From a virus, in IMG/VR virus record IMGVR_UViG_3300045988_147372, positions 1 through 42,832 of that record: a stretch of DNA of 42,832 bases; one strand, 5' to 3'. How positions within the stretch are numbered: position 1 is the first letter of the stretch; each line of letters opens with the position of its first letter. A program made the translations under genes and the position numbers. Positions 21,125 through 30,401 of the stretch are shown piece after piece. The notes under the pieces are model-generated. The model ran no database searches. It was given only the letters and a program-made list of their open reading frames with translations, and was not told the DNA's origin.

Positions 21125-22441
21125 TTAGCGTTTCAGCCCAAGAATTCGAGCGTTGTCAAGAACCATGTATTTGAATGCGTCTACTGTATGGTCGTTTTCT
21201 TTGATAACTTTGGGGTCATCTGACTCCATTGACTTTTCGTCCCATTGATACTGTCGATGCTGTTCCATGAATACTTTATTGTTTGGAGTGTCTAAAACAA
21301 AAACCCGCCCTTGTGCGAGCAGGCTTTGAACGTAGTCGATCATATCGGCTTCTTTGAGCTTGTGTACTGGATGCCAAGCAACGTGGTAGTCGCTGTAATA
21401 CTGGTTGCGCATGGCGCCTTCAGCAGAATCAATTGTCATGTTTTTGACTTTCGCGCCGCGGTATTCCTTGGTTACCGAAGTCAAGAACTCATGAATCTCC
21501 TTGGATAAGAGGCTTGGCGGTTTCTTTAACGATTGATTGGCCGGTGAGTAGTAGTAGGTGTCAAGAACGATTACATTTCCCTTCGAGGTAACAGCGGCAA
21601 CAGGCAATGCTGTAGCAGACGATATATGCCCACTATCCATTGCTGGAAATAGATAAATCAAAGGATCATCTTCTGGGACATGTTGAATGAGGTGGAACAG
21701 ATCCATGTTGTAGACGTTGGTTCCAAGGCCGACAATCTCGCCAAGATAAAGCCAACGGTAGTAGTCATAATCGTTGGCTTTATACTTTTCGATCAGTTTT
21801 AGCTGCTGGCCATCAGTGAACCCAAGCTCATCATCGAGATAAGTTGATTTGTCGATGAAGAAATCGTTGTCTCCTCTAACGCTATCAATCCACTCATTAA
21901 TCCAGTCATATGGATTCTTCGGTGGGTTATACGTGTAGAAGACTTGAACCTGATCAACCCATGGTGATTTCTGTCGAATGAAGGTTGGATTAGTTTGGTC
22001 AAACACTTCAGCAGATTTGAAGTTGGCTGCTTCTTCATACCACACAGCAATCACGTTACGAACGGTGTTAGACTTCAGCTTTTCAGGCTTGTCACCGCCA
22101 TAGAAGTAGAATGTGCTACCAGTTCCACGATGCGTTATGCGCATAGGCGATACGTTGAACACAAACTCGTCTGTCATTTTGAGCATGTCAATTGCCCAAC
22201 TGATCTGGCTGTAAACCGAATCACGCAAGTTAACCGTATTCTCTCGAATGATGATGACATTGGCTTTATGACCTTGCTGTGCTTGCCTTTTAAGCATCAT
22301 GAGTAGCTTCAGACTAACTGTCGATGACTTAAACGAGCCACGGCCGCCGTTCAGTATCAGATATGGTGCCTTTGACCGCCAAAACGGATAGAAATGTGGT
22401 TGCACCATCTTACTTAACTTAATCATCTTCTGGGACGTCAT
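21125..22441 (-). CDS. terL: Terminase large subunit
   Basis: Walker-A-like NGGRGSFKSS. ~438 aa. The ATG at 22441 has an RBS (GGTGA); the ORF track starts at the TTG at 22447. Confidence 0.85.
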   Translation of the reverse strand: MTSQKMIKLSKMVQPHFYPFWRSKAPYLILNGGRGSFKSSTVSLKLLMMLKRQAQQGHKANVIIIRENTVNLRDSVYSQISWAIDMLKMTDEFVFNVSPMRITHRGTGSTFYFYGGDKPEKLKSNTVRNVIAVWYEEAANFKSAEVFDQTNPTFIRQKSPWVDQVQVFYTYNPPKNPYDWINEWIDSVRGDNDFFIDKSTYLDDELGFTDGQQLKLIEKYKANDYDYYRWLYLGEIVGLGTNVYNMDLFHLIQHVPEDDPLIYLFPAMDSGHISSATALPVAAVTSKGNVIVLDTYYYSPANQSLKKPPSLLSKEIHEFLTSVTKEYRGAKVKNMTIDSAEGAMRNQYYSDYHVAWHPVHKLKEADMIDYVQSLLAQGRVFVLDTPNNKVFMEQHRQYQWDEKSMESDDPKVIKENDHTVDAFKYMVLDNARILGLKR

Positions 22442-23069
22442 CGACAATCACCGTCCTGTCTTGCGAATCTGCATCAGTAAGCAATTTGGCCTTGGCTTCC
22501 ATGATGTCAGCCTCAGCTTTAGACTTGCGAACTTCTTCGGCCACTTTTTCGGCTTGTGCTTCGTTCAATTGCTTGAATGCTTGATCACGGAACAGCTCCG
22601 GCTTGCGATTCTTCAACCAAAAGATTTGGGCTGAGGTATCCGGTGCCAGTTCGTTCTCATTGACCATTATTGGTATCTTTTCATAAGTAGGAACGTTCTC
22701 AATTGATGCTTGAACAAGTTCCTTCCTAGTGAACTCTGGATGATCAATCTGATGTTCATTTCGCCACCTAGCTCTTTTTGCCTCCAATACGTCATCTCGA
22801 ATAGGGACCATTTTATAAGTCGTATTAGTGATGGTCATACCTAAAGCCCTTTTAACTAGTGAACCAGCAACCATTTGATCAACAACTTCTTTTCCCCTCT
22901 TTAGGGCGTCAGAAATGTCAGAATACTTTTTCTTCCAGTCATAAAGTGTTGGCCTCTTGATACCGATGTTATGGGCTATTTGTTCATCAGTGAGGCCGTC
23001 GCGGGCCCACCCTTCTATGAGAGCCAGTTTTTCTGGTGTCTGCCATTCTTGATATTTCCCTTTAGCCAT
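22419..23069 (-). CDS. terS: Terminase small subunit
   Basis: N-terminal HTH (LTDEQIAHNIGIKRPTLYDWKKKY). 216 aa, directly upstream of TerL. Confidence 0.75.
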   Translation of the reverse strand: MAKGKYQEWQTPEKLALIEGWARDGLTDEQIAHNIGIKRPTLYDWKKKYSDISDALKRGKEVVDQMVAGSLVKRALGMTITNTTYKMVPIRDDVLEAKRARWRNEHQIDHPEFTRKELVQASIENVPTYEKIPIMVNENELAPDTSAQIFWLKNRKPELFRDQAFKQLNEAQAEKVAEEVRKSKAEADIMEAKAKLLTDADSQDRTVIVDDVPEDD

Positions 23070-24393: not shown

Positions 24394-24467
24394 GAGCCAC
24401 ATGCAATCATGCTGCTCTTTTCATTTTTTACTCCTCTGGCTCTCGGCCTTACCCACCGAGAGCTTTT
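24394..24467 (+). ncRNA. Array A unit 1: predicted ~74-nt RNA
   Basis: TTGCAT (24359..24364) -17 nt- TATAAT (24382..24387). Terminator GCTCTCGG/CCGAGAGC + TTTT at 24439..24467. Confidence 0.45.
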
Positions 24468-24505
24468 CTATTGCCTGAAAAGTTCGAGTGAGATAAAATG
24501 AATCT

Positions 24506-24585
24506 GTTCCAAACTATATACTCATTTTCATTCCTCGGTACTACCCTAATCTTCTAGCTCTCGGCCCCCAACCGAGGGCTTTTTT
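24506..24585 (+). ncRNA. Array A unit 2: predicted ~80-nt RNA
   Basis: TTGCCT (24471..24476) -17 nt- TAAAAT (24494..24499). Terminator stem 24557..24579 plus a T6 run. Confidence 0.45.
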
Positions 24586-24620
24586 AGTATCTTCTATAAG
24601 GAGTGTGCTAATATATATGC

Positions 24621-24726
24621 GTGAGTAGTGGCTTTTCTCCTCCAAGTCAATCGCTGCTACTCACTAGTGGATTTCATTTTTTCCATTTCTCCGGCCCTCA
24701 GACACTTCGACCTCTGAGGGCTTTTT
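24621..24726 (+). ncRNA. Array A unit 3: predicted ~106-nt RNA
   Basis: TGcTAATAT at 24606..24614. 5' hairpin GUGAGUAG/CUACUCAC (24621..24664). Terminator GCCCTCAGA/TCTGAGGGC + T5 at 24694..24726. Confidence 0.4.
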
Positions 24727-24763
24727 GAATCCGATTTATTGCTATATGTGTTATACTCTTTTT

Positions 24764-24832
24764 TGGCACTGTCGTTTCACCTCAGCAAACGCCGGTAGCT
24801 AGGCCCTCAGTTAATCGCTCAGAGGGCTTTTT
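24764..24832 (+). ncRNA. Array A unit 4: predicted ~69-nt RNA
   Basis: TGtTATACT at 24749..24757, preceded by a TTGCTATA box at 24739..24746. Terminator GCCCTC/GAGGGC + T5 at 24803..24832. Confidence 0.4.
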
Positions 24833-24884
24833 CTGTGTAATCGGTTTTTAGATCTTCTTTTAATTATAGTGGTATAATTATTTT

Positions 24885-24964
24885 TGCAGGAATAATACTT
24901 CTGCACCTCTTAAAAATCTTCTTCTTTCTTTTCGGGCACCTTCGGTTTATGCCGGAGGTTTTTT
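24885..24964 (+). ncRNA. Array A unit 5: predicted ~80-nt RNA
   Basis: TGgTATAAT at 24870..24878. 5' hairpin UGCAG/CUGCA, then a pyrimidine-rich tract. Terminator 24938..24964 (8 bp + T6). Confidence 0.4.
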
Positions 24965-24971
24965 GTTGCAC

Positions 24972-26459: not shown

Positions 26460-26992
26460 TTTTATCACCTCACAAAAATAGTACACCAGCATGAACTGGA
26501 ATACTATATTGAGGTGATATCTGATGTTCTTGGAGTGATAGGCTCCAAAGCGAACGGGCGGAGTTGCACCGCCCCGTTTCAGCATTGCTTAACCGGTATC
26601 AATGCCTTCCCTTGTCTGCTGATCGCATAATGCGCACGGCCTCGATCGTTAACCGTACGGCTTCTGGCTGTTCACCCTTGTCAACCAGCGACCAACTTTG
26701 AGTGGCTGGCAGGACTTTCACCCGCTGTATCTTCCATCAGCCACGCTCGCTCTCCCAGTGTCAGATGGGGTCATCGCAAGCTGTGTCCGGTCGCTAAACT
26801 GGACAATGTGGCATGCGGGAATCAAACCCACCTGACTATCTCAGCCAGTCCATTTGCCACGCCTTGCCACAGCTTTATCATCACTGAGGCTCGGAGGAAA
26901 AATGCGGTGTCTCAGGTTTCTCATCTTTGGCACAATACCATAATACTGCCTATAAACGATCTTTTGGGGGCTTTTTCGGGGCCCAAAAGGGG
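26460..26992 (-). ncRNA. ~530-nt ORF-free, GC-rich structured leader / candidate large ncRNA
   Basis: No credible ORF in any frame. Hand counts on 60-nt lines give 52-60% GC at 26581..26760, against 32-35% in the adjacent CDS. Contains a strong hairpin AACGGGGCGG-ugcaacu-CCGCCCGUU, a tRNA-like element (26807..26860), a GGGGCTTTTTCGGGG direct repeat and the RBS-sequestering helix. Confidence 0.45.
26463..26519 (-). promoter_or_regulatory. 10-bp helix sequestering the RBS of the GNAT-like gene
   Basis: TATCACCTCA (26463..26472) and TGAGGTGATA (26510..26519) are perfect reverse complements 37 nt apart. In the minus-strand RNA the 3' arm contains the GAGGUGA SD, 3 nt before the AUG. Confidence 0.55.
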
Positions 26993-27430
26993 CTAATTCG
27001 GGGCTTTTTCGGGGTTTTTGAAAACCAATAGATTTTCTCCTTGATAGGCTTCTGCAAATTCTAACAGCGCTCGGTTCTTAAGCTTCTTGATTGATTCTCT
27101 TGAGTAACCTTGCATGCGATAAGCAATCTGGTCATAAGTCAGTACCTCTTTGTTGCAGTATGAATAAAACAGCGTCCAGAAGCTTGTGGTTGTTAGCGCC
27201 ATCAATGCATTCTCAATCAGTTCAACGCTAATACGAGCACTGACGACTTTTGCCACTTTACCATCTACTGAATTATTTACTGAATGTGTCTTTGGCATAC
27301 CATCTATAACGGGTGATTTAATGTCAGACAAATAGACACCGCCGATACGTGATAGCGTTCGGAAGTCTTTCAATATCTCTCTTGCCTTTGTACGTGTCGA
27401 ATTTTCGTCTATTTCTGGAATTAACGTCAT
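26993..27430 (-). CDS. ArpU-family phage late transcriptional regulator
   Basis: Start moved to MTLIPEIDENSTRTKAREILKDF behind RBS GGGGTGG. The C-terminal sigma-r4-like YDQIAYRMQGYSRESIKKLKNRALLEFAEAY is typical of ArpU. Confidence 0.7.
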   Translation of the reverse strand: MTLIPEIDENSTRTKAREILKDFRTLSRIGGVYLSDIKSPVIDGMPKTHSVNNSVDGKVAKVVSARISVELIENALMALTTTSFWTLFYSYCNKEVLTYDQIAYRMQGYSRESIKKLKNRALLEFAEAYQGENLLVFKNPEKAPN

Positions 27431-27512
27431 CGGTAGGCCACCCCTTATGGTATAATGAATTTGCCTAAAACTCATCGGGAAGGCGTGCCGTAATGGTGCG
27501 CTTTTTTGATGC

Positions 27513-27665
27513 TTAGAGATTAATACTTCGATCGATTAGTTCATCTAATGTATATTTACCGCCCCATCGGTCACGTTCCTTTTGTTGGGCAATCTTTCTC
27601 TCGTTGGCCAAACGCGCGGCTTTCATGCGTCGATGCTTCTTTTTAATGACTGATTTCTTTTTCAT
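27513..27665 (-). CDS. 50-aa highly basic protein
   Basis: MKKKSVIKKKHRRMKAARLANERKIAQQKER... behind RBS GGGAGGG. Confidence 0.45.
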   Translation of the reverse strand: MKKKSVIKKKHRRMKAARLANERKIAQQKERDRWGGKYTLDELIDRSINL

Positions 27666-27693
27666 TTGACCCTCCCAGCGATTTCGACTAAGC

Positions 27694-28047
27694 CTATAAA
27701 TCAAAGACAATGGTTGCTGGCTCTTTAACGTGGCCTTTGAATACTGGCTTCTTGCTGTTGGAGATTTTAGCCAATAACTGGCTCAGCTCAGAGCGGCAGA
27801 TAATTCCGCTTTTCTTCAACCCAGTTGTGGCAATCACAACTCCTCTTGCGTCCGCCGGGGCTGCTAATACCGCCAGTTGCGTTTGATTGTCGTCAATGCC
27901 AAATTGCAAGGCTTTGAAGTCACCCAACGCTGCACGTGCTTTGGAATTAAGAGATAGTCTGTTTTCAGTAACTGACAGTGCTGGGTATGGTAAAGTTGTA
28001 AATCCCGTCTTGGCGCTCAAATCGATTGTTTTAAAGCCTTTGATCAT
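27694..28047 (-). CDS. Hypothetical protein
   Basis: 117-aa ORF with RBS GAAGGAA. No motif recognised. Confidence 0.5.
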   Translation of the reverse strand: MIKGFKTIDLSAKTGFTTLPYPALSVTENRLSLNSKARAALGDFKALQFGIDDNQTQLAVLAAPADARGVVIATTGLKKSGIICRSELSQLLAKISNSKKPVFKGHVKEPATIVFDL

Positions 28048-28081
28048 TTTTAGTTCCTTCTTTCTGTGATATACTTACCTT

Positions 28082-28135
28082 TCAAATAATTCGGTTTGAT
28101 AGACTGAGTCGTCCTGTTAATCCGGGGCGACTTTT
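28082..28135 (+). ncRNA. Array B unit 0: predicted ~54-nt RNA
   Basis: TGaTATACT at 28067..28075. Terminator stem 28107..28132 plus T4. Confidence 0.35.
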
Positions 28136-28149
28136 GCTATACTTTGTTT

Positions 28150-28242
28150 TGGAGGCGCTTTCTTATGCGTATTAACCTTATAAGTTGGGGAATAAATCTG
28201 CTTCAAGCACCTCCCGCGCGTTGCTTATGTAACGCGCTTTTT
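28150..28242 (+). ncRNA. Array B unit 1: predicted ~93-nt RNA
   Basis: TGcTATACT at 28135..28143. 5' GGAGGCGC (28151..28158) pairs with GCACCUCC (28207..28214). Terminator GCGCGTT/AACGCGC + T5 at 28216..28242. Confidence 0.45.
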
Positions 28243-28255
28243 GCTATACTGCTTG

Positions 28256-28346
28256 CGGAGACCAACTCCTTTTATAAAGATTCCATTTGACATCTTATGT
28301 GTGTTTCACTGGCCTCCGGCATGCCACTAATGTGGCGTGCTTTTTT
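28256..28346 (+). ncRNA. Array B unit 2: predicted ~91-nt RNA
   Basis: TGcTATACT at 28242..28250. 5' CGGAGaCC (28256..28263) pairs with GGcCUCCG (28311..28318). Terminator 9 bp + T6 at 28319..28346. Confidence 0.45.
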
Positions 28347-28394
28347 GATGCTTTTAAATGTACTTTCGATATTTGTGTTTGCTATACTGATTAA

Positions 28395-28483
28395 GGAGGC
28401 AGCCTCTATTGTGGCGAAATTCATTACTTACATCTCTTAGCTAAATCTGCCTCCAGCGCGTCCTTCATCAGACGCGCTTTTTT
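28395..28483 (+). ncRNA. Array B unit 3: predicted ~89-nt RNA
   Basis: TGcTATACT at 28380..28388. 5' GGAGGCAG (28395..28402) pairs perfectly with CUGCCUCC (28447..28454). Terminator AGCGCGTC/GACGCGCT + T5 at 28455..28483. Confidence 0.5.
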
Positions 28484-28498
28484 GTGCTACACTTTCCT

Positions 28499-28580
28499 TG
28501 GAGTGTCCCTATAAAAAATCTGATGCTATTGGGGCAATTTGTCTACACTCCAGAGCGTGCTTTCGTCCAGCACGCTTTTT
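28499..28580 (+). ncRNA. Array B unit 4: predicted ~82-nt RNA
   Basis: TGcTACACT at 28485..28493. 5' UGGAGUGU (28499..28506) pairs perfectly with ACACUCCA (28545..28552). Terminator AGCGTGC/GCACGCT + T run at 28554..28580. Confidence 0.5.
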
Positions 28581-28582
28581 GT

Positions 28583-28732
28583 TTACCCAAATGCGGCCTT
28601 CCAGAGCACCCGTACAACCCAGCACCCCACAAGAATGAAAACTGCTGTCGTGAATGCACAGCCTACGAAACAACCACCTAACAATCCGGTTTCCACAAGC
28701 CTTTCTGACTTAGATTGACGATCATCAGTCAT
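28583..28732 (-). CDS. 49-aa single-TM membrane peptide
   Basis: MTDDRQSKSERLVETGLLGGCFVGCAFTTAVFILVGCWVVRVLWKAAFG behind a strong RBS GGAGGG (5-nt spacer). It overlaps the end of the methyltransferase fragment by 8 nt. Below the ORF-track cutoff. Confidence 0.5.
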   Translation of the reverse strand: MTDDRQSKSERLVETGLLGGCFVGCAFTTAVFILVGCWVVRVLWKAAFG

Positions 28733-29045
28733 GGCTTCCCTCCATCATTTCCGGCCAGAGGTCGCGGTCATCTTTCGTGCCTTTTCGCTTCCCGGCAATA
28801 CTGAAAGGTTGGCAAGGGAAGCCTCCGGAAACAATGTCAATTGAGTCAGGGCTGATTCCTGCATTTGTGAGTTCTTCTCGATCAAGTTTTGTCACGTCCT
28901 TAAAAAGTGGCACATCTGGCCAGTGCTTCTGTAAAATCATGCGCGGATATTCTGCGTACTCACACAAACCGGCCACTTCAATTCCAGCCATTTGTTCAGC
29001 CAATGCGATGCCACCAATTCCTGCAAATAACTCTAGCGATCTCAT
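28725..29045 (-). pseudogene. Truncated DNA (cytosine-5)-methyltransferase (N-terminal 106 aa only)
   Basis: Motif I LFAGIGG and motif IV GFPCQPFS are present. The ORF stops after DLWPEM, before motifs VI (ENV), VIII, IX and X that all active C5-MTases carry. Confidence 0.7.
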
Positions 29046-30138: not shown

Positions 30139-30195
30139 TTGTATAAGACATACATTTTTGATATACTAGGTTTACAGGTTACTGTAATGACCTGT
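30139..30195 (+). promoter_or_regulatory. Near-consensus promoter plus palindromic operator-like site
   Basis: TTGTAT (30139..30144) -17 nt- TATACT (30162..30167). ACAGGT-N10-ACCTGT inverted repeat at 30174..30195, between the -10 box and the RBS. Confidence 0.55.
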
Positions 30196-30220
30196 AATAA
30201 ATTAGATGGGAGGACTATTG

Positions 30221-30340
30221 ATGGCAAAAACAAAGTCAAGTGTTCGCGGAACGCAACGGAAGAAAATTGTTGTTGTAAAGCCGTATATCAAGTCTAGCGG
30301 GACTCACGTTGACGGCTATCGGCGTTCCACACCAAACTAG
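30221..30340 (+). CDS. 39-aa highly basic peptide on the strand opposite the replication module
   Basis: MAKTKSSVRGTQRKKIVVVKPYIKSSGTHVDGYRRSTPN. RBS GGGAGG. Has its own promoter and a strong downstream terminator. Confidence 0.5.
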   Translation: MAKTKSSVRGTQRKKIVVVKPYIKSSGTHVDGYRRSTPN

Positions 30341-30362
30341 TTTTAACAGTCATGCTTTAATT

Positions 30363-30401
30363 ACTCCTTTAGGGTCTAAGGTTTCCCTGAGGGAGTTTTT
30401 T
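30363..30401 (+). terminator. Strong intrinsic terminator
   Basis: ~12-bp stem ACTCCTTTAGGG / CCCTGAGGGAGT, 10-nt loop, T6 run. Confidence 0.65.

Follow-up and report, generated by a model that had tools for sequence, protein, structure and literature searches.

The stretch of DNA analysed here, called the window throughout, comprises 42,832 nucleotides of a viral record (IMG/VR IMGVR_UViG_3300045988_147372). It contains, within a Lacticaseibacillus prophage, a tandem set of five small non-coding RNA genes, array B. The five units are arranged head to tail on the plus strand (28067-28581), i.e., opposite to the lytic genes and on the same strand as those of lysogeny. With the addition of a further unit, unit 0, the small RNA genes total six (Table 1). 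Two inserted genes lie between unit 0 and unit 1, and five other loci (L009, L012, L026, L044 and L066) show the same arrangement. The box of unit 1 lies 19 nt upstream of the start codon of one of the two, the 117-aa gene on the opposite strand. In array A, a unit at 24621-24726 carries CUCCUCC in a hairpin loop.

Table 1. Features at the array B locus; positions are those of the window, and helices are given as 5′ arm/3′ arm.
Feature	Position	Strand	Extended -10 box	Closing helix	Terminator	Covariance-model match	Remarks
ArpU-family late transcriptional activator gene	26993-27430	-					faced by array and unit 0
Unit 0	27448-27508	+	TGGTATAAT, 27448-27456		GGCGTGCC-GTAAT-GGTGCGC-T6		predicted RNA ~45 nt
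65-aa ORF	27513-27710						inserted, with 117-aa gene, between units 0 and 1
117-aa gene	27694-28047	-					no family found; inserted between units 0 and 1
Unit 1	28067-28135	+	TGATATACT, 28067-28075	none	28107-28135		RNA body ~53 nt
Unit 2	28135-28242	+	TGCTATACT, 28135-28143	GGAGGCGCTT (28151-28160)/AAGCACCTCC (28205-28214), one C.A mismatch	28216-28242	from 28151, 81.7 bits	predicted +1 at 28151; predicted RNA 92 nt
Unit 3	28242-28346	+	TGCTATACT, 28242-28250	CGGAGACCA (28256-28264)/TGGCCTCCG (28310-28318)	28319-28346	from 28257, 75.3 bits	loop opens with ACUCCUUUU
Spacer	28347-28379	+					33 nt, GATGCTTTTAAATGTACTTTCGATATTTGTGTT; conserved between arrays
Unit 4	28380-28483	+	TGCTATACT, 28380-28388 (unconfirmed as promoter)	GGAGGCAG (28395-28402)/CTGCCTCC (28447-28454)	28455-28483	from 28395, 71.9 bits	fold z-score -4.5
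Unit 5	28485-28581	+	TGCTACACT, 28485-28493	TGGAGTGT (28499-28506)/ACACTCCA (28545-28552)	28553-28580	from 28500, 38.5 bits, E = 1.3e-6	terminator abuts stop codon of 49-aa gene
49-aa hydrophobic protein gene	28583-28732	-					phrog_15069, E = 2.7e-28

The gene that the array faces encodes an ArpU-family protein, whose likely true start is M16 of a 160-aa ORF. Residues 16-155 match phrog_248, “transcriptional activator” (E = 8.7e-28), and by tblastn the protein is 27-41% identical to annotated ArpU-family regulators over 94-99% of its length; Pfam gave no match to this gene at E < 0.01. A scan of genome contigs for ArpU found two loci only. The small terminase gene is at 22419-23069. At the other end of the array, the ORF of the 49-aa protein ends 2 nt from the terminator of unit 5. 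The 3′ untranslated continuation of this gene is complementary to unit 5; the two transcripts would overlap only if the mRNA reads into the array.

The motif TGNTAYACT occurs seven times in the whole window, exclusively on the plus strand; the mean in dinucleotide shuffles was 1.7, and seven copies were reached in none of 100. Five of the seven are the boxes of array B. A scan for terminators on the plus strand identified those of units 2-5 (28216-28237, 28318-28341, 28455-28478 and 28552-28578). The hairpin of unit 1 folds with -20 kcal/mol on the plus strand versus -9.9 on the minus strand, being stronger on the plus strand because G.U pairs are used. At three junctions the U-tract runs directly into the next box; at the fourth, the 33-nt spacer intervenes. 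A promoter of the extended -10 type, independent of a -35 element, and an intrinsic terminator are present in every unit, with the reservation that the box of unit 4 is unconfirmed as a promoter.

Four of the units begin with GGAG at +1, which pairs with CUCC immediately before the terminator; the 5′ end is therefore clamped in a helix, and a loop of 38-46 nt is left open. Units 2-5 fold into this closing helix, an open core and the terminator, unit 1 folds into a small 5′ hairpin and the terminator, and the fold z-scores of all five lie between -3.7 and -4.8. The one mismatch in the helix of unit 2 is absent from its homologue in R29.1, which has a perfect helix (GGAGAUGCUU/AAGCAUCUCC). Units 2-5 have unrelated cores, their common parts being the promoter, the GGAG/CUCC clamp and the terminator. 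Across the array as a whole only the box, CCTCC and the terminators are shared, and the spacings are irregular (68-138 nt).

The closing helix covaries. Over 19 unit variants, 85.3% of cells are paired, versus 33-48% when slid; the observed value was reached in none of 500 shuffles, and changes on both sides were seen in 12 pairs. Helix pair 7-68 alone occurs as CG (8), GC (5), AU (3), GU, UA and UG (1 each). In orthologous units conservation sets in exactly at the first G of GGAG, the most variable stretch is the 6 nt between the box and +1, and the cores are conserved within each unit type (the alignment of the unit 3 family held 21 variants). No conserved ORF was found on either strand of the 535-nt array (28048-28582), the minus-strand frames of the unit variants have stop codons in nearly all cases, with none open across any family, and homologous arrays have no conserved intact minus-strand ORF across units. 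The minus-strand ORFs annotated there in other phages (PLE3_55, phiAT3 ORF46) were rejected on account of stops in nearly every unit-variant frame. Plus-strand mini-ORFs following GGAGG were likewise rejected: that of unit 2 reads through the terminator, and its frame differs between the window and R29.1 due to a 1-nt indel.

Searches for known classes of RNA were negative. At gathering scores Rfam 15 gave no match in the whole window; the best sub-threshold match in 27900-28800 was GcvB, at 20.6 bits versus a gathering score of 42, and was driven by the terminators. ARAGORN found no tRNA. An examination for type III antitoxin (ToxI) or CRISPR-like structure found no near-identical repeats of fixed period and no partner gene nearby. 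Inference of the strand from G.U versus A.C in the closing helix was tried and was uninformative, the deviations being balanced between strands; the helix cannot tell the strand, because GGAG/CUCC reads identically on both. The assignment of the strand rests on terminators, promoters and transcript data.

Such transcript data exist for L. paracasei BL23, in which Northern blotting and RNA-seq from the lysogen detect homologues of the array units (PMC8220740). Small-RNA-seq of uninduced BL23 lists sLCB573.6-, 573.5-, 573.2-, 1264.9- and 1264.7- (PMC8220740, supplementary tables), at 50-2300 counts per million (PMC8220740); for these homologues, constitutive production in an uninduced lysogen has been shown. 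The BL23 RNAs are 90-97% identical to units 1, 2 and 4 of the window (unit 1, 89.6% to the 3′ part of sLCB573.6-; unit 4, 97.2% to sLCB1264.7-), and they share with the window units the RNA families, the strand relative to the prophage genes and the ends. Nucleotide 1 of sLCB573.5- aligns to 28151, the first G of the GGAG of unit 2, and its short isoform, at 196 - 104 = 92 nt, extends to the first terminator; the 3′ ends of the BL23 homologues coincide with the terminators. Several of the BL23 RNAs had been called as read-through dimers, of 196 and 244 nt. The BL23 homologues of unit 0, sLCB1264.9- and sLCB573.6-, start 6-7 nt after the same box, and a weak lytic-sense RNA, sLCB1264+, stops 25 nt short of the start site of unit 0 and does not reach arpU.

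These data have limits. The mapped 5′ end of the unit 4 homologue corresponds to 28374, inside the spacer and upstream of the box at 28380-28388, for which reason this box is unconfirmed as the unit 4 promoter; inspection by eye of the 33-nt spacer for a second promoter that would explain this end gave no convincing consensus. As the libraries were RppH-treated, the BL23 5′ ends may be processed rather than primary. There are no transcript data for the unit 5 type, and the E. faecalis RNA-map papers and their supplements yielded no usable sequence match as independent transcript evidence. In BL23 the RNAs were catalogued merely as “antisense” or “intergenic” candidates with no function proposed (PMC8220740); their prophage origin, their grouping in an array and their closeness to a late activator went unrecognised (PMC8220740).

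Homologous arrays are present in at least 20 phage records and in many IMG/VR prophages. In Lacticaseibacillus phages they comprise one to six units, which have been shuffled between phages; they are always upstream of the ArpU gene, and the far boundary is variable, with other arrays abutting a helix-turn-helix gene or unrelated sequence at that end. A first pattern scan of IMG/VR was too generic, about half of its 63 loci being chance matches. Covariance model R1 found units only in Lacticaseibacillus loci and missed Enterococcus RNAs of the same architecture. In these Enterococcus phage RNAs ACUCCUUUU directly follows the 5′ arm, as it does in Lacticaseibacillus unit 3; they have a different helix (GGUAGCA or GACAGCA) and a different genomic place.

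The box of unit 0 directs transcription away from arpU and is located ~18 nt before the likely start codon of that gene (27430); the unit folds with -20.2 kcal/mol (z -4.5) on the plus strand versus -4.9 (z +0.6) on the minus strand. The unit 0 RNA would start ~35 nt upstream of the arpU start codon, run away from it and span roughly -35 to -80, without overlapping the Shine-Dalgarno sequence or coding region of arpU. Reduced to its minimum, unit 0 is an antisense TGNTATAAT 14-27 nt before the arpU start followed by a terminator. An automatic box-plus-terminator test for it was passed by 33 of the 37 distinct regions upstream of arpU in IMG/VR viral contigs; outside Lacticaseibacillus, the ArpU proteins there are only 36-46% identical to the window protein. 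Unit 0 was also seen in named phages of Enterococcus, Listeria, Streptococcus and Lactobacillaceae. Of 124 other ORF starts, 15 passed the same test; five were arpU itself at other coordinates and ten lay ~1.2 kb downstream of the arpU start, nine of the ten, on examination, having a recognisable second antisense unit. The interior of unit 0 is not conserved, and its distance from arpU is fixed across genera. The virulent phage J-1 retains unit 0, which therefore cannot be solely a device of lysogeny. We infer that the array is a lineage-specific expansion of a single conserved anti-arpU mini-gene.

The first-pass annotation of the window had described five tandem promoter and terminator units on the plus strand, and this held, as judged from boxes, terminators and strand-specific folds, as did its five box coordinates (28067, 28135, 28242, 28380 and 28485) and its statement that the U-run leads directly into the next box at three junctions. 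Its co-varying closing helix and its argument against decayed coding sequence were upheld, by the counts across 19 variants and by the inspection of homologues, respectively. It assigned GGAG and the closing helix to units 1-4, which failed on numbering: they belong to units 2-5, because the unit at 28067 has no closing helix. The absence of a credible ORF, claimed for a 0.65-kb interval, held in part, i.e., only for the 535-nt array, because the 49-aa ORF (28583-28732) matches a known family. Its five units were an incomplete set, the sixth (27448-27508) lying outside the region it had delimited. Transcripts have been found for the BL23 homologues of units 1, 2 and 4 (PMC8220740), with 3′ ends at the terminators and, for unit 2, a 5′ end on the first G of GGAG, and the Infernal-type search that it suggested was run, with the result given above. 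The overall reading, that of small RNAs arranged in tandem on the strand opposing the lytic genes, each with a promoter and terminator of its own, is supported by covariation, stop codons, homologous arrays and published transcripts, the promoter of unit 4 remaining unconfirmed. What is new is the position of the Lacticaseibacillus arrays upstream of arpU and the conservation of unit 0 across Gram-positive phage genera, both of which are shown as arrangements of sequence.

What these RNAs do can only be inferred, since no experiment links them to arpU. The reading we put forward, with slightly more doubt than confidence, is that of a guard on the late switch: base-pairing RNAs expressed in the lysogen, together with convergent promoters, would keep ArpU silent and thereby prevent lysis. 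ArpU, the late activator, is in this phage group encoded by the last gene of the long early transcript and can by itself switch on the packaging and lysis genes; an ArpU-type product alone is enough for turn-on of the late operon (PMC3753634), and an ArpU-like protein, when expressed ectopically, is lethal to a Listeria lysogen via holin and lysin (PMC7397523). The array would span the sole route of early transcription to arpU, and from the early genes to arpU no terminator is predicted on the minus strand. Its promoters would fire head-on into early transcription, and its RNAs would be perfectly complementary to the read-through transcript, several of their loops opening with a pyrimidine-rich putative anti-Shine-Dalgarno motif. 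Leaky early transcripts are thus predicted to be blocked, cleaved or left untranslated in the lysogen, and ArpU to appear only after induction, once early transcription outruns the antisense pool.

Several observations count against the guard model. In the window two genes lie between units 1-5 and arpU, whose Shine-Dalgarno sequence and coding region both lie outside the RNAs. If cis-antisense pairing or collision were the whole mechanism, no particular core sequence would be required; the cores are conserved within types and ACUCCUUUU is shared with the differently placed Enterococcus RNAs, so that sequence-specific targets in trans are favoured. A serious rival is that the units are trans-acting regulatory small RNAs, whose anti-Shine-Dalgarno loop seeds would repress host or phage mRNAs as a form of lysogenic conversion, the position near arpU being merely permissive. 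In its favour, the loops open with CUCC, CCUC, CCCU or UCCCU in five of seven helix types, ACUCCUUUU is common to RNAs with differing helices, the untranscribed spacer is variable while the cores are conserved, the BL23 homologues are highly expressed in the uninduced lysogen, the array A unit also has a C-rich hairpin loop, and the units, one to six in number, shuffle like accessory cassettes. Against it, no translation-initiation region of the window exceeds shuffled controls or other genes: RNA duplex energies against ~100 such regions gave none beyond shuffled controls (arpU ranked 4th to 44th), blastn-short of the units against the masked window gave only chance matches of 11-12 nt, and distant blastn in other phages found syntenic arrays only, with no long complementarity outside the syntenic site. 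Nor does it explain the fixed distance of unit 0 from arpU across genera while the interior is not conserved. We regard it as less likely than the guard model, and well short of an even chance. The first-pass annotation had offered three roles: small RNAs expressed in lysogeny and aimed at Shine-Dalgarno regions, which gain support, by inference, from the loop motif shared with Enterococcus phage RNAs; a fence against read-through, which gains support, also by inference, from the conserved position beside the late activator gene; and decoys, for which there is no support.

The remaining rivals fare less well. Superinfection exclusion, in which prophage RNAs would pair with the identical region of related phages entering the cell and prevent ArpU from being expressed by them, an arms race accounting for the diversity and shuffling of units, has in its favour that the homologues are made in the lysogen, that unit sets are mosaic between phages and that an antisense RNA of the Salmonella BTP1 prophage, STnc6030, excludes superinfecting phage (PMC12197685). 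We consider it unlikely: the lytic strand has no coding sequence in the target region, the prophage's own transcript would be struck just as much on induction, and the cores, instead of being diversified, are well conserved in many phages. Less likely still is a type I toxin-antitoxin system similar to txpA/RatA or bsrG/SR4, with unit 5 (elsewhere the last unit) as antitoxin of the adjacent hydrophobic peptide gene. The 49-aa ORF is indeed convergent with unit 5, and many related arrays abut a hydrophobic ORF of 23-25 aa (flanks read by eye), but RNA and peptide gene are not co-inherited, other arrays having a helix-turn-helix gene or other sequence in that place; the peptide gene is within the early operon without an evident promoter of its own; and at most one of five units would be explained. 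Finally, the region might have no RNA function, its transcripts being by-products either of coding sequence in decay or of an element that works at the level of DNA (a replication origin or recombination hot spot). Recombination does occur in the region, since units are shuffled at the conserved junctions of terminator, T-tract and box, and a truncated methyltransferase is nearby. This view is nevertheless largely excluded, as the helix covaries, conservation starts at +1, the hairpins are strand-asymmetric, the BL23 homologues are discrete, abundant RNAs with ends that fit the predicted signals, and no homologue has a conserved intact minus-strand ORF across units.

Among the closest counterparts are lambda aQ and OOP and P22 sar, which, like the array RNAs, are short, have their own promoter and are directed against lytic genes; aQ reduces the expression of Q, which regulates the late genes (PMC12197685), and an equivalent effect on arpU is proposed here. 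Those are single RNAs of Gram-negative phages that overlap the coding region of their target, whereas the array has up to six units upstream of its target, without overlap of coding region or ribosome-binding site. Measured against aQ, a promoter of their own opposite the regulator's transcript is met (by geometry, BL23 ends and the 33 of 37 arpU regions), and overlap with the regulator's coding region or ribosome-binding site is not. STnc6030, too, is produced from a prophage in the lysogenic state, is directed against a lytic gene as an antisense RNA and acts on phage transcripts, but it is a single RNA with a structural-gene coding target and a demonstrated role in superinfection exclusion. 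In the phiNM2 region of S. aureus Newman, srn_9342-9346 are several small RNA genes in ~650 nt of a Gram-positive prophage, of unknown function (PMC5496865); unlike array B, they are at the prophage end beside the lysin gene, lie on both strands, include one that encodes a peptide, and have neither a shared unit architecture nor a link to a late activator. LhrC1-5 of Listeria, with which the first-pass annotation had compared the array, are also small RNA genes in tandem that are separately promoted and terminated. In both sets C/U-rich motifs might pair with Shine-Dalgarno regions, but in array B, where such motifs open most loops, no target stands out. The LhrC genes, however, are chromosomal, near-identical siblings, whereas array B is phage-borne with unrelated cores; no sequence or Rfam match indicates a relationship, and the comparison holds as an analogy of layout only. 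The literature searched agrees with the earlier statement that no such phage module had been described, individual RNAs having already been catalogued in BL23 without comment.

A bolder reading, which we consider rather improbable, is that ArpU-controlled temperate phages of Firmicutes share a hitherto unrecognised RNA lock on the lysis decision, namely a convergent antisense mini-gene at a fixed distance from the start codon of the late activator, which in Lacticaseibacillus may have been expanded into exchangeable arrays that might also serve as cassette-like immunity. The variable loops of the 5′-clamped RNAs might then set the threshold and timing of late-gene expression and act on incoming related phages. 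Arrays A and B together make up ~1.1 kb of these phage genomes, the abundant RNA products of which are at present either overlooked in annotation or wrongly labelled as small “hypothetical proteins”, and some of the most abundant small RNAs of BL23, a probiotic strain, are products of prophages. It is not understood how Gram-positive lysogens keep ArpU silent or what sets its timing once they are induced; the conserved antisense unit is a concrete candidate.

Array B is a row of small RNA genes, units 1 to 5, on the plus strand, opposite to the lytic genes; homologues of these units are expressed in a lysogen. The first-pass annotation had read the array as tandem small-RNA units; this reading is real and supported, whereas their roles remain inferred. 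The window is a Lacticaseibacillus prophage (casei/paracasei/rhamnosus group), in which the lytic genes lie on the minus strand and the lysogeny genes, integrase included, on the plus strand. The array occupies a 535-nt gap (28048–28582), upstream, in the lytic direction, of the gene for an ArpU-family late activator, whose identity to annotated ArpU regulators from phages of Enterococcus, Listeria and Streptococcus is 27–41%. The surrounding 0.65 kb had been described as lacking any credible ORF. This is correct in part: a 49-aa gene is credible there, but the 535-nt array itself contains no conserved ORF. In the truncated methyltransferase beyond, only the first ~100 residues are encoded (Pfam DNA_methylase profile positions 1–94 of 324); the rest was probably lost by a deletion adjoining the array.

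Coordinates of the array, its neighbours and its homologues (window positions unless a comparison locus, L, is named)
Feature	Position	Strand	Remarks
ArpU-family late activator gene	26993–27430	−	phrog_248, E = 8.7e-28
Unit 0	27448–27508	+	antisense TGGTATAAT and terminator immediately before ArpU start
117-aa gene	27694–28047	−	one flank of 535-nt gap
Unit 2, RNA body	28151–28242	+	covariance-model hit
Unit 3, RNA body	28257–28345	+	covariance-model hit
Unit 4, RNA body	28395–28482	+	covariance-model hit
Unit 5, RNA body	28500–28580	+	covariance-model hit
49-aa hydrophobic ORF	28583–28732	−	phrog_15069, E = 2.7e-28; other flank of gap
C5 cytosine methyltransferase	28725–29045	−	N-terminal third only; follows 49-aa ORF
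sLCB1264.9- (nt 12–50)	27477–27513		unit 0, 87.2% identity
sLCB573.6- (3′ part)	28061–28137		unit 1, 89.6% identity
sLCB573.5- (nt 1–138)	28151–28289		units 2–3, 89.9% identity
sLCB1264.7-	28374–28482		unit 4, 97.2% identity
Enterococcus-type antisense RNA gene	L105 2590–2690	−	likewise L098, L109, L110, L117, L124, L136, L144, L145

Each unit comprises an extended −10 box, an RNA body and an intrinsic terminator. The window contains seven copies of the box consensus, TGNTAYACT, all of them plus-strand (shuffles: mean 1.7, 0/100 reaching seven), and five of these copies are the boxes that the first-pass annotation had placed in array B. Its claim of a terminator in every unit also held: four were found on the plus strand by a terminator scan, and the fifth (28107–28135), which contains G.U pairs, by G.U-aware folding (−20 kcal/mol for the plus strand versus −9.9 for the minus strand). 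Its assignment of GGAG and a closing helix to units 1–4 failed, as these features belong to the last four units. Units 2–5 fold into a closing helix, an open core and the terminator, and unit 1 into a small 5′ hairpin and the terminator, with z-scores of −3.7 to −4.8 for the five units. The layout was amended in that one junction holds a conserved 33-nt spacer, and the extent in that a sixth unit, unit 0, lies outside the array as first delimited. The folding energy of unit 0 is −20.2 kcal/mol on the plus strand versus −4.9 on the minus strand; the terminators, unit 0 above all, are clearly plus-strand structures. Deviations in the closing helix (G.U versus A.C) are balanced and hence uninformative as to strand.

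Small RNAs of L. paracasei BL23 have been sequenced (50–500-nt RNA, RppH treatment, pooled growth phases, uninduced) [PMC8220740], and the supplementary tables of that study contain homologues of the array units, under sLCB names, at 50–2300 counts per million. Prophages are named there in one figure legend only, and the unit homologues are not discussed. sLCB573.5- begins at the equivalent of 28151, where the GGAGG of unit 2 starts, 7 nt past the box; one library has a form that ends 104 nt earlier, at the first terminator, and is 92 nt long. By the authors' own promoter call, sLCB573.6- and sLCB1264.9- start 6–7 nt past TGGTATGAT and TGGTATAAT, respectively. The 5′ end of the unit-4-type RNA lies 21 nt upstream of GGAG, so that the box is included in the RNA and is therefore unconfirmed as the unit-4 promoter; possibly, a different promoter is used or the RNA is processed from read-through. 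Small plus-strand RNAs, as claimed at first pass for array B, are thus supported for homologues of units 1, 2 and 4, and also for unit 0; unit 3 is covered in part, by the sLCB573.5- alignment, and the data cover no unit-5-type RNA. A weak 163-nt RNA in the lytic direction, sLCB1264+ (BL23 1263693–1263855, plus strand; phage PLE3, L002 2796–2958, minus strand), has its promoter within one array unit and stops inside the hairpin of unit 0; its end, 25 nt from the start site of that unit, falls short of arpU.

No Rfam family matches the units. Homologous arrays are present in 20 phage records (including R29.1, R3.1, PLE3, iLp84, P7.1, Lrm1, Lc-Nu and phiAT3) and in many IMG/VR prophages, at a constant location and with a varying number and set of units. 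Among 19 unit variants, the GGAG/CUCC base of the closing helix is kept, and the inner helix varies (ATGCTT, GCAG, GCCA, TGT, GTAT) with its partner arm changing in step. Helix cells are paired in 85.3% of cases, versus 33–48% with the 3′ partner slid, and 12 pairs are altered on both sides, values reached in 0/500 shuffles. Compensatory changes in the 5′/3′ helix were thus found, with the caveat that the 19 sequences are kin and that the structure was derived from those same sequences. Intact minus-strand ORFs in homologues, which would have refuted the RNA reading, were not found among the frames of the unit variants: nearly all contain stops, and none is open throughout any family. As conservation of plus-strand mini-ORFs was not found either, gene decay and hidden ORFs are excluded. 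Orthologous units vary most in the 6 nt that separate the box from GGAG; their conservation starts at the first G, which independently marks this G as +1. Deposited minus-strand ‘hypothetical protein’ ORFs over RNA units (PLE3_55, phiAT3 ORF46; L002 2952–3092, L076 1416–1622) are unconserved between variants and are probable mis-calls.

In R29.1, PLE3, R24.1, Lc-Nu, phiAT3 and C3.1 the array directly adjoins the ArpU gene, and its first element is a tiny unit of the unit-0 type: TGGTATAAT, lying within a few nucleotides of the arpU Shine-Dalgarno sequence and directed away from arpU, and then a terminator. In the window, genes of 65 and 117 aa are inserted between units 0 and 1. The far boundary is variable (a 23–25-aa hydrophobic ORF, the 49-aa ORF, a helix-turn-helix gene, or other); hence the side facing arpU is the one that stays constant. 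The 23–25-aa ORF (e.g. MIAVMLLISGAAMWMWANWKRGK) often adjoins related arrays.

Unit 0 lies upstream of arpU in Enterococcus phiFL1C, a Listeria phage, a Latilactobacillus phage, Streptococcus Javan427 and L. brevis LBR48, and is absent there in Oenococcus phiOE33PA and an Atopostipes MAG. An IMG/VR survey by ArpU alignment yielded 80 loci with 37 distinct upstream regions, 33 of which passed an automatic box-plus-terminator test; the box is present in three of the four failures. It starts 14–27 nt from the arpU start codon, and the unit interior is unrelated between groups. As a control, 15/124 other ORF starts in these loci passed: five were arpU itself at other coordinates, and the remaining ten lie ~1.2 kb downstream of the arpU start, where a second antisense unit was recognised in nine on examination. 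Relatives carry between 1 and 6 units; in the virulent phage J-1, unit 0 stands alone between a helix-turn-helix gene and ArpU, without any GGAG-type unit (L166 2379–2450).

This second antisense site is an RNA gene built like unit 3 of the window: TG[C/A/T]TATACT (box TGNTATACT), 6 nt, GGUAGCA, a loop beginning ACUCCUUUUUG, UGCUACC and a terminator. The closing helix covaries, one variant having GACAGCA/UGCUGUC with the loop start unchanged; the Lacticaseibacillus unit 3 has GGAGGCCA followed by ACUCCUUUU. Unit-3-type RNAs thus keep an anti-Shine-Dalgarno-like loop motif across genera while the helix covaries. CUCC, CCUC or CCCU opens the loop in most other unit types. The array-unit covariance model did not detect the Enterococcus-type RNA.

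Other elements in the window were also observed. Array A (24400–24970, plus strand), a second row of ~5 promoter/terminator small-RNA units, lies between an ASCH-domain gene and a 382-aa gene upstream of the small terminase gene. Within it, 24506–24585 is 95% identical to BL23 sLCB577.2-, verified by Northern blot, and 24621–24726, which folds with a 12-bp 5′ hairpin with CUCCUCC in the loop (z = −6.9), matches sLCB577.1- (~10,000 counts per million) at 73% identity. Downstream of arpU, on the lytic strand, is a tRNA-like remnant (26807–26871, minus strand) with acceptor and T arms only (Rfam tRNA-clan model 21 bits, E = 0.59; ARAGORN no match). Transcription of the BL23 homologue is on record (sLCB574.1+). 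A real tRNA-Ile occupies the corresponding place in PLE3, and a tRNA follows arpU in Enterococcus locus L105 as well. A plus-strand mini-gene among the early lytic genes (30159–30395; TGATATACT at 30159, terminator 30383–30395) contains a 44-aa lysine/arginine-rich ORF (30206–30340) with the ribosome-binding site GGGAGG.

Listeria LhrC1-5 has a similar layout but no homology to the array units, whose cores are unrelated to one another. The lambda aQ RNA, acting on Q, resembles the array in proposed role, but the array RNAs do not overlap the regulator coding region. The condensed small-RNA cluster of the S. aureus phiNM2 region differs in place and make-up [PMC5496865]. For ArpU and antisense RNA together, the literature searched gave only a 2013 Ltr paper, without such an RNA. 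Individual RNAs have already been catalogued, without interpretation; that literature apparently describes neither the array as a module of phages, nor its tie to arpU, nor how widely the minimal antisense unit is conserved.

The favoured reading, that the array is a guard on the late switch, is inferred and is slightly more likely to prove wrong than right. Its main rival, which we consider rather the weaker, is that units 2–5 are trans-acting anti-Shine-Dalgarno RNAs with targets of their own. The conserved cores and the loop motif shared across genera are better accounted for by this rival than by the guard reading, but no target was found in the phage (the search was limited to phage sequence, host genomes lying outside it). 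Below both stand superinfection exclusion and the possibility that the last unit acts as a type I antitoxin, each unlikely; the 49-aa ORF does meet unit 5 from the opposite side in a toxin-antitoxin-like geometry, and this pairing is inconstant among related arrays. A non-RNA explanation is lower still, and very improbable.

The guard reading is favoured because early transcription must cross the array and is complementary to its RNAs, and because sLCB1264+ stops before arpU. The crossing follows from the window, in which the stretch from the early genes to arpU has no predicted minus-strand terminator. In this phage group arpU comes at the end of the long early transcript, and its product by itself is sufficient to activate the late operon [PMC3753634]. 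An ArpU-like protein, when ectopically expressed, kills a Listeria lysogen via holin and lysin [PMC7397523]. As a guard, the array would confront early transcription head-on with up to six promoters, and the read-through RNA would be fully complementary to abundant small RNAs. Convergent transcription and antisense pairing would together hold ArpU off in the lysogen and, after induction, would set a threshold.
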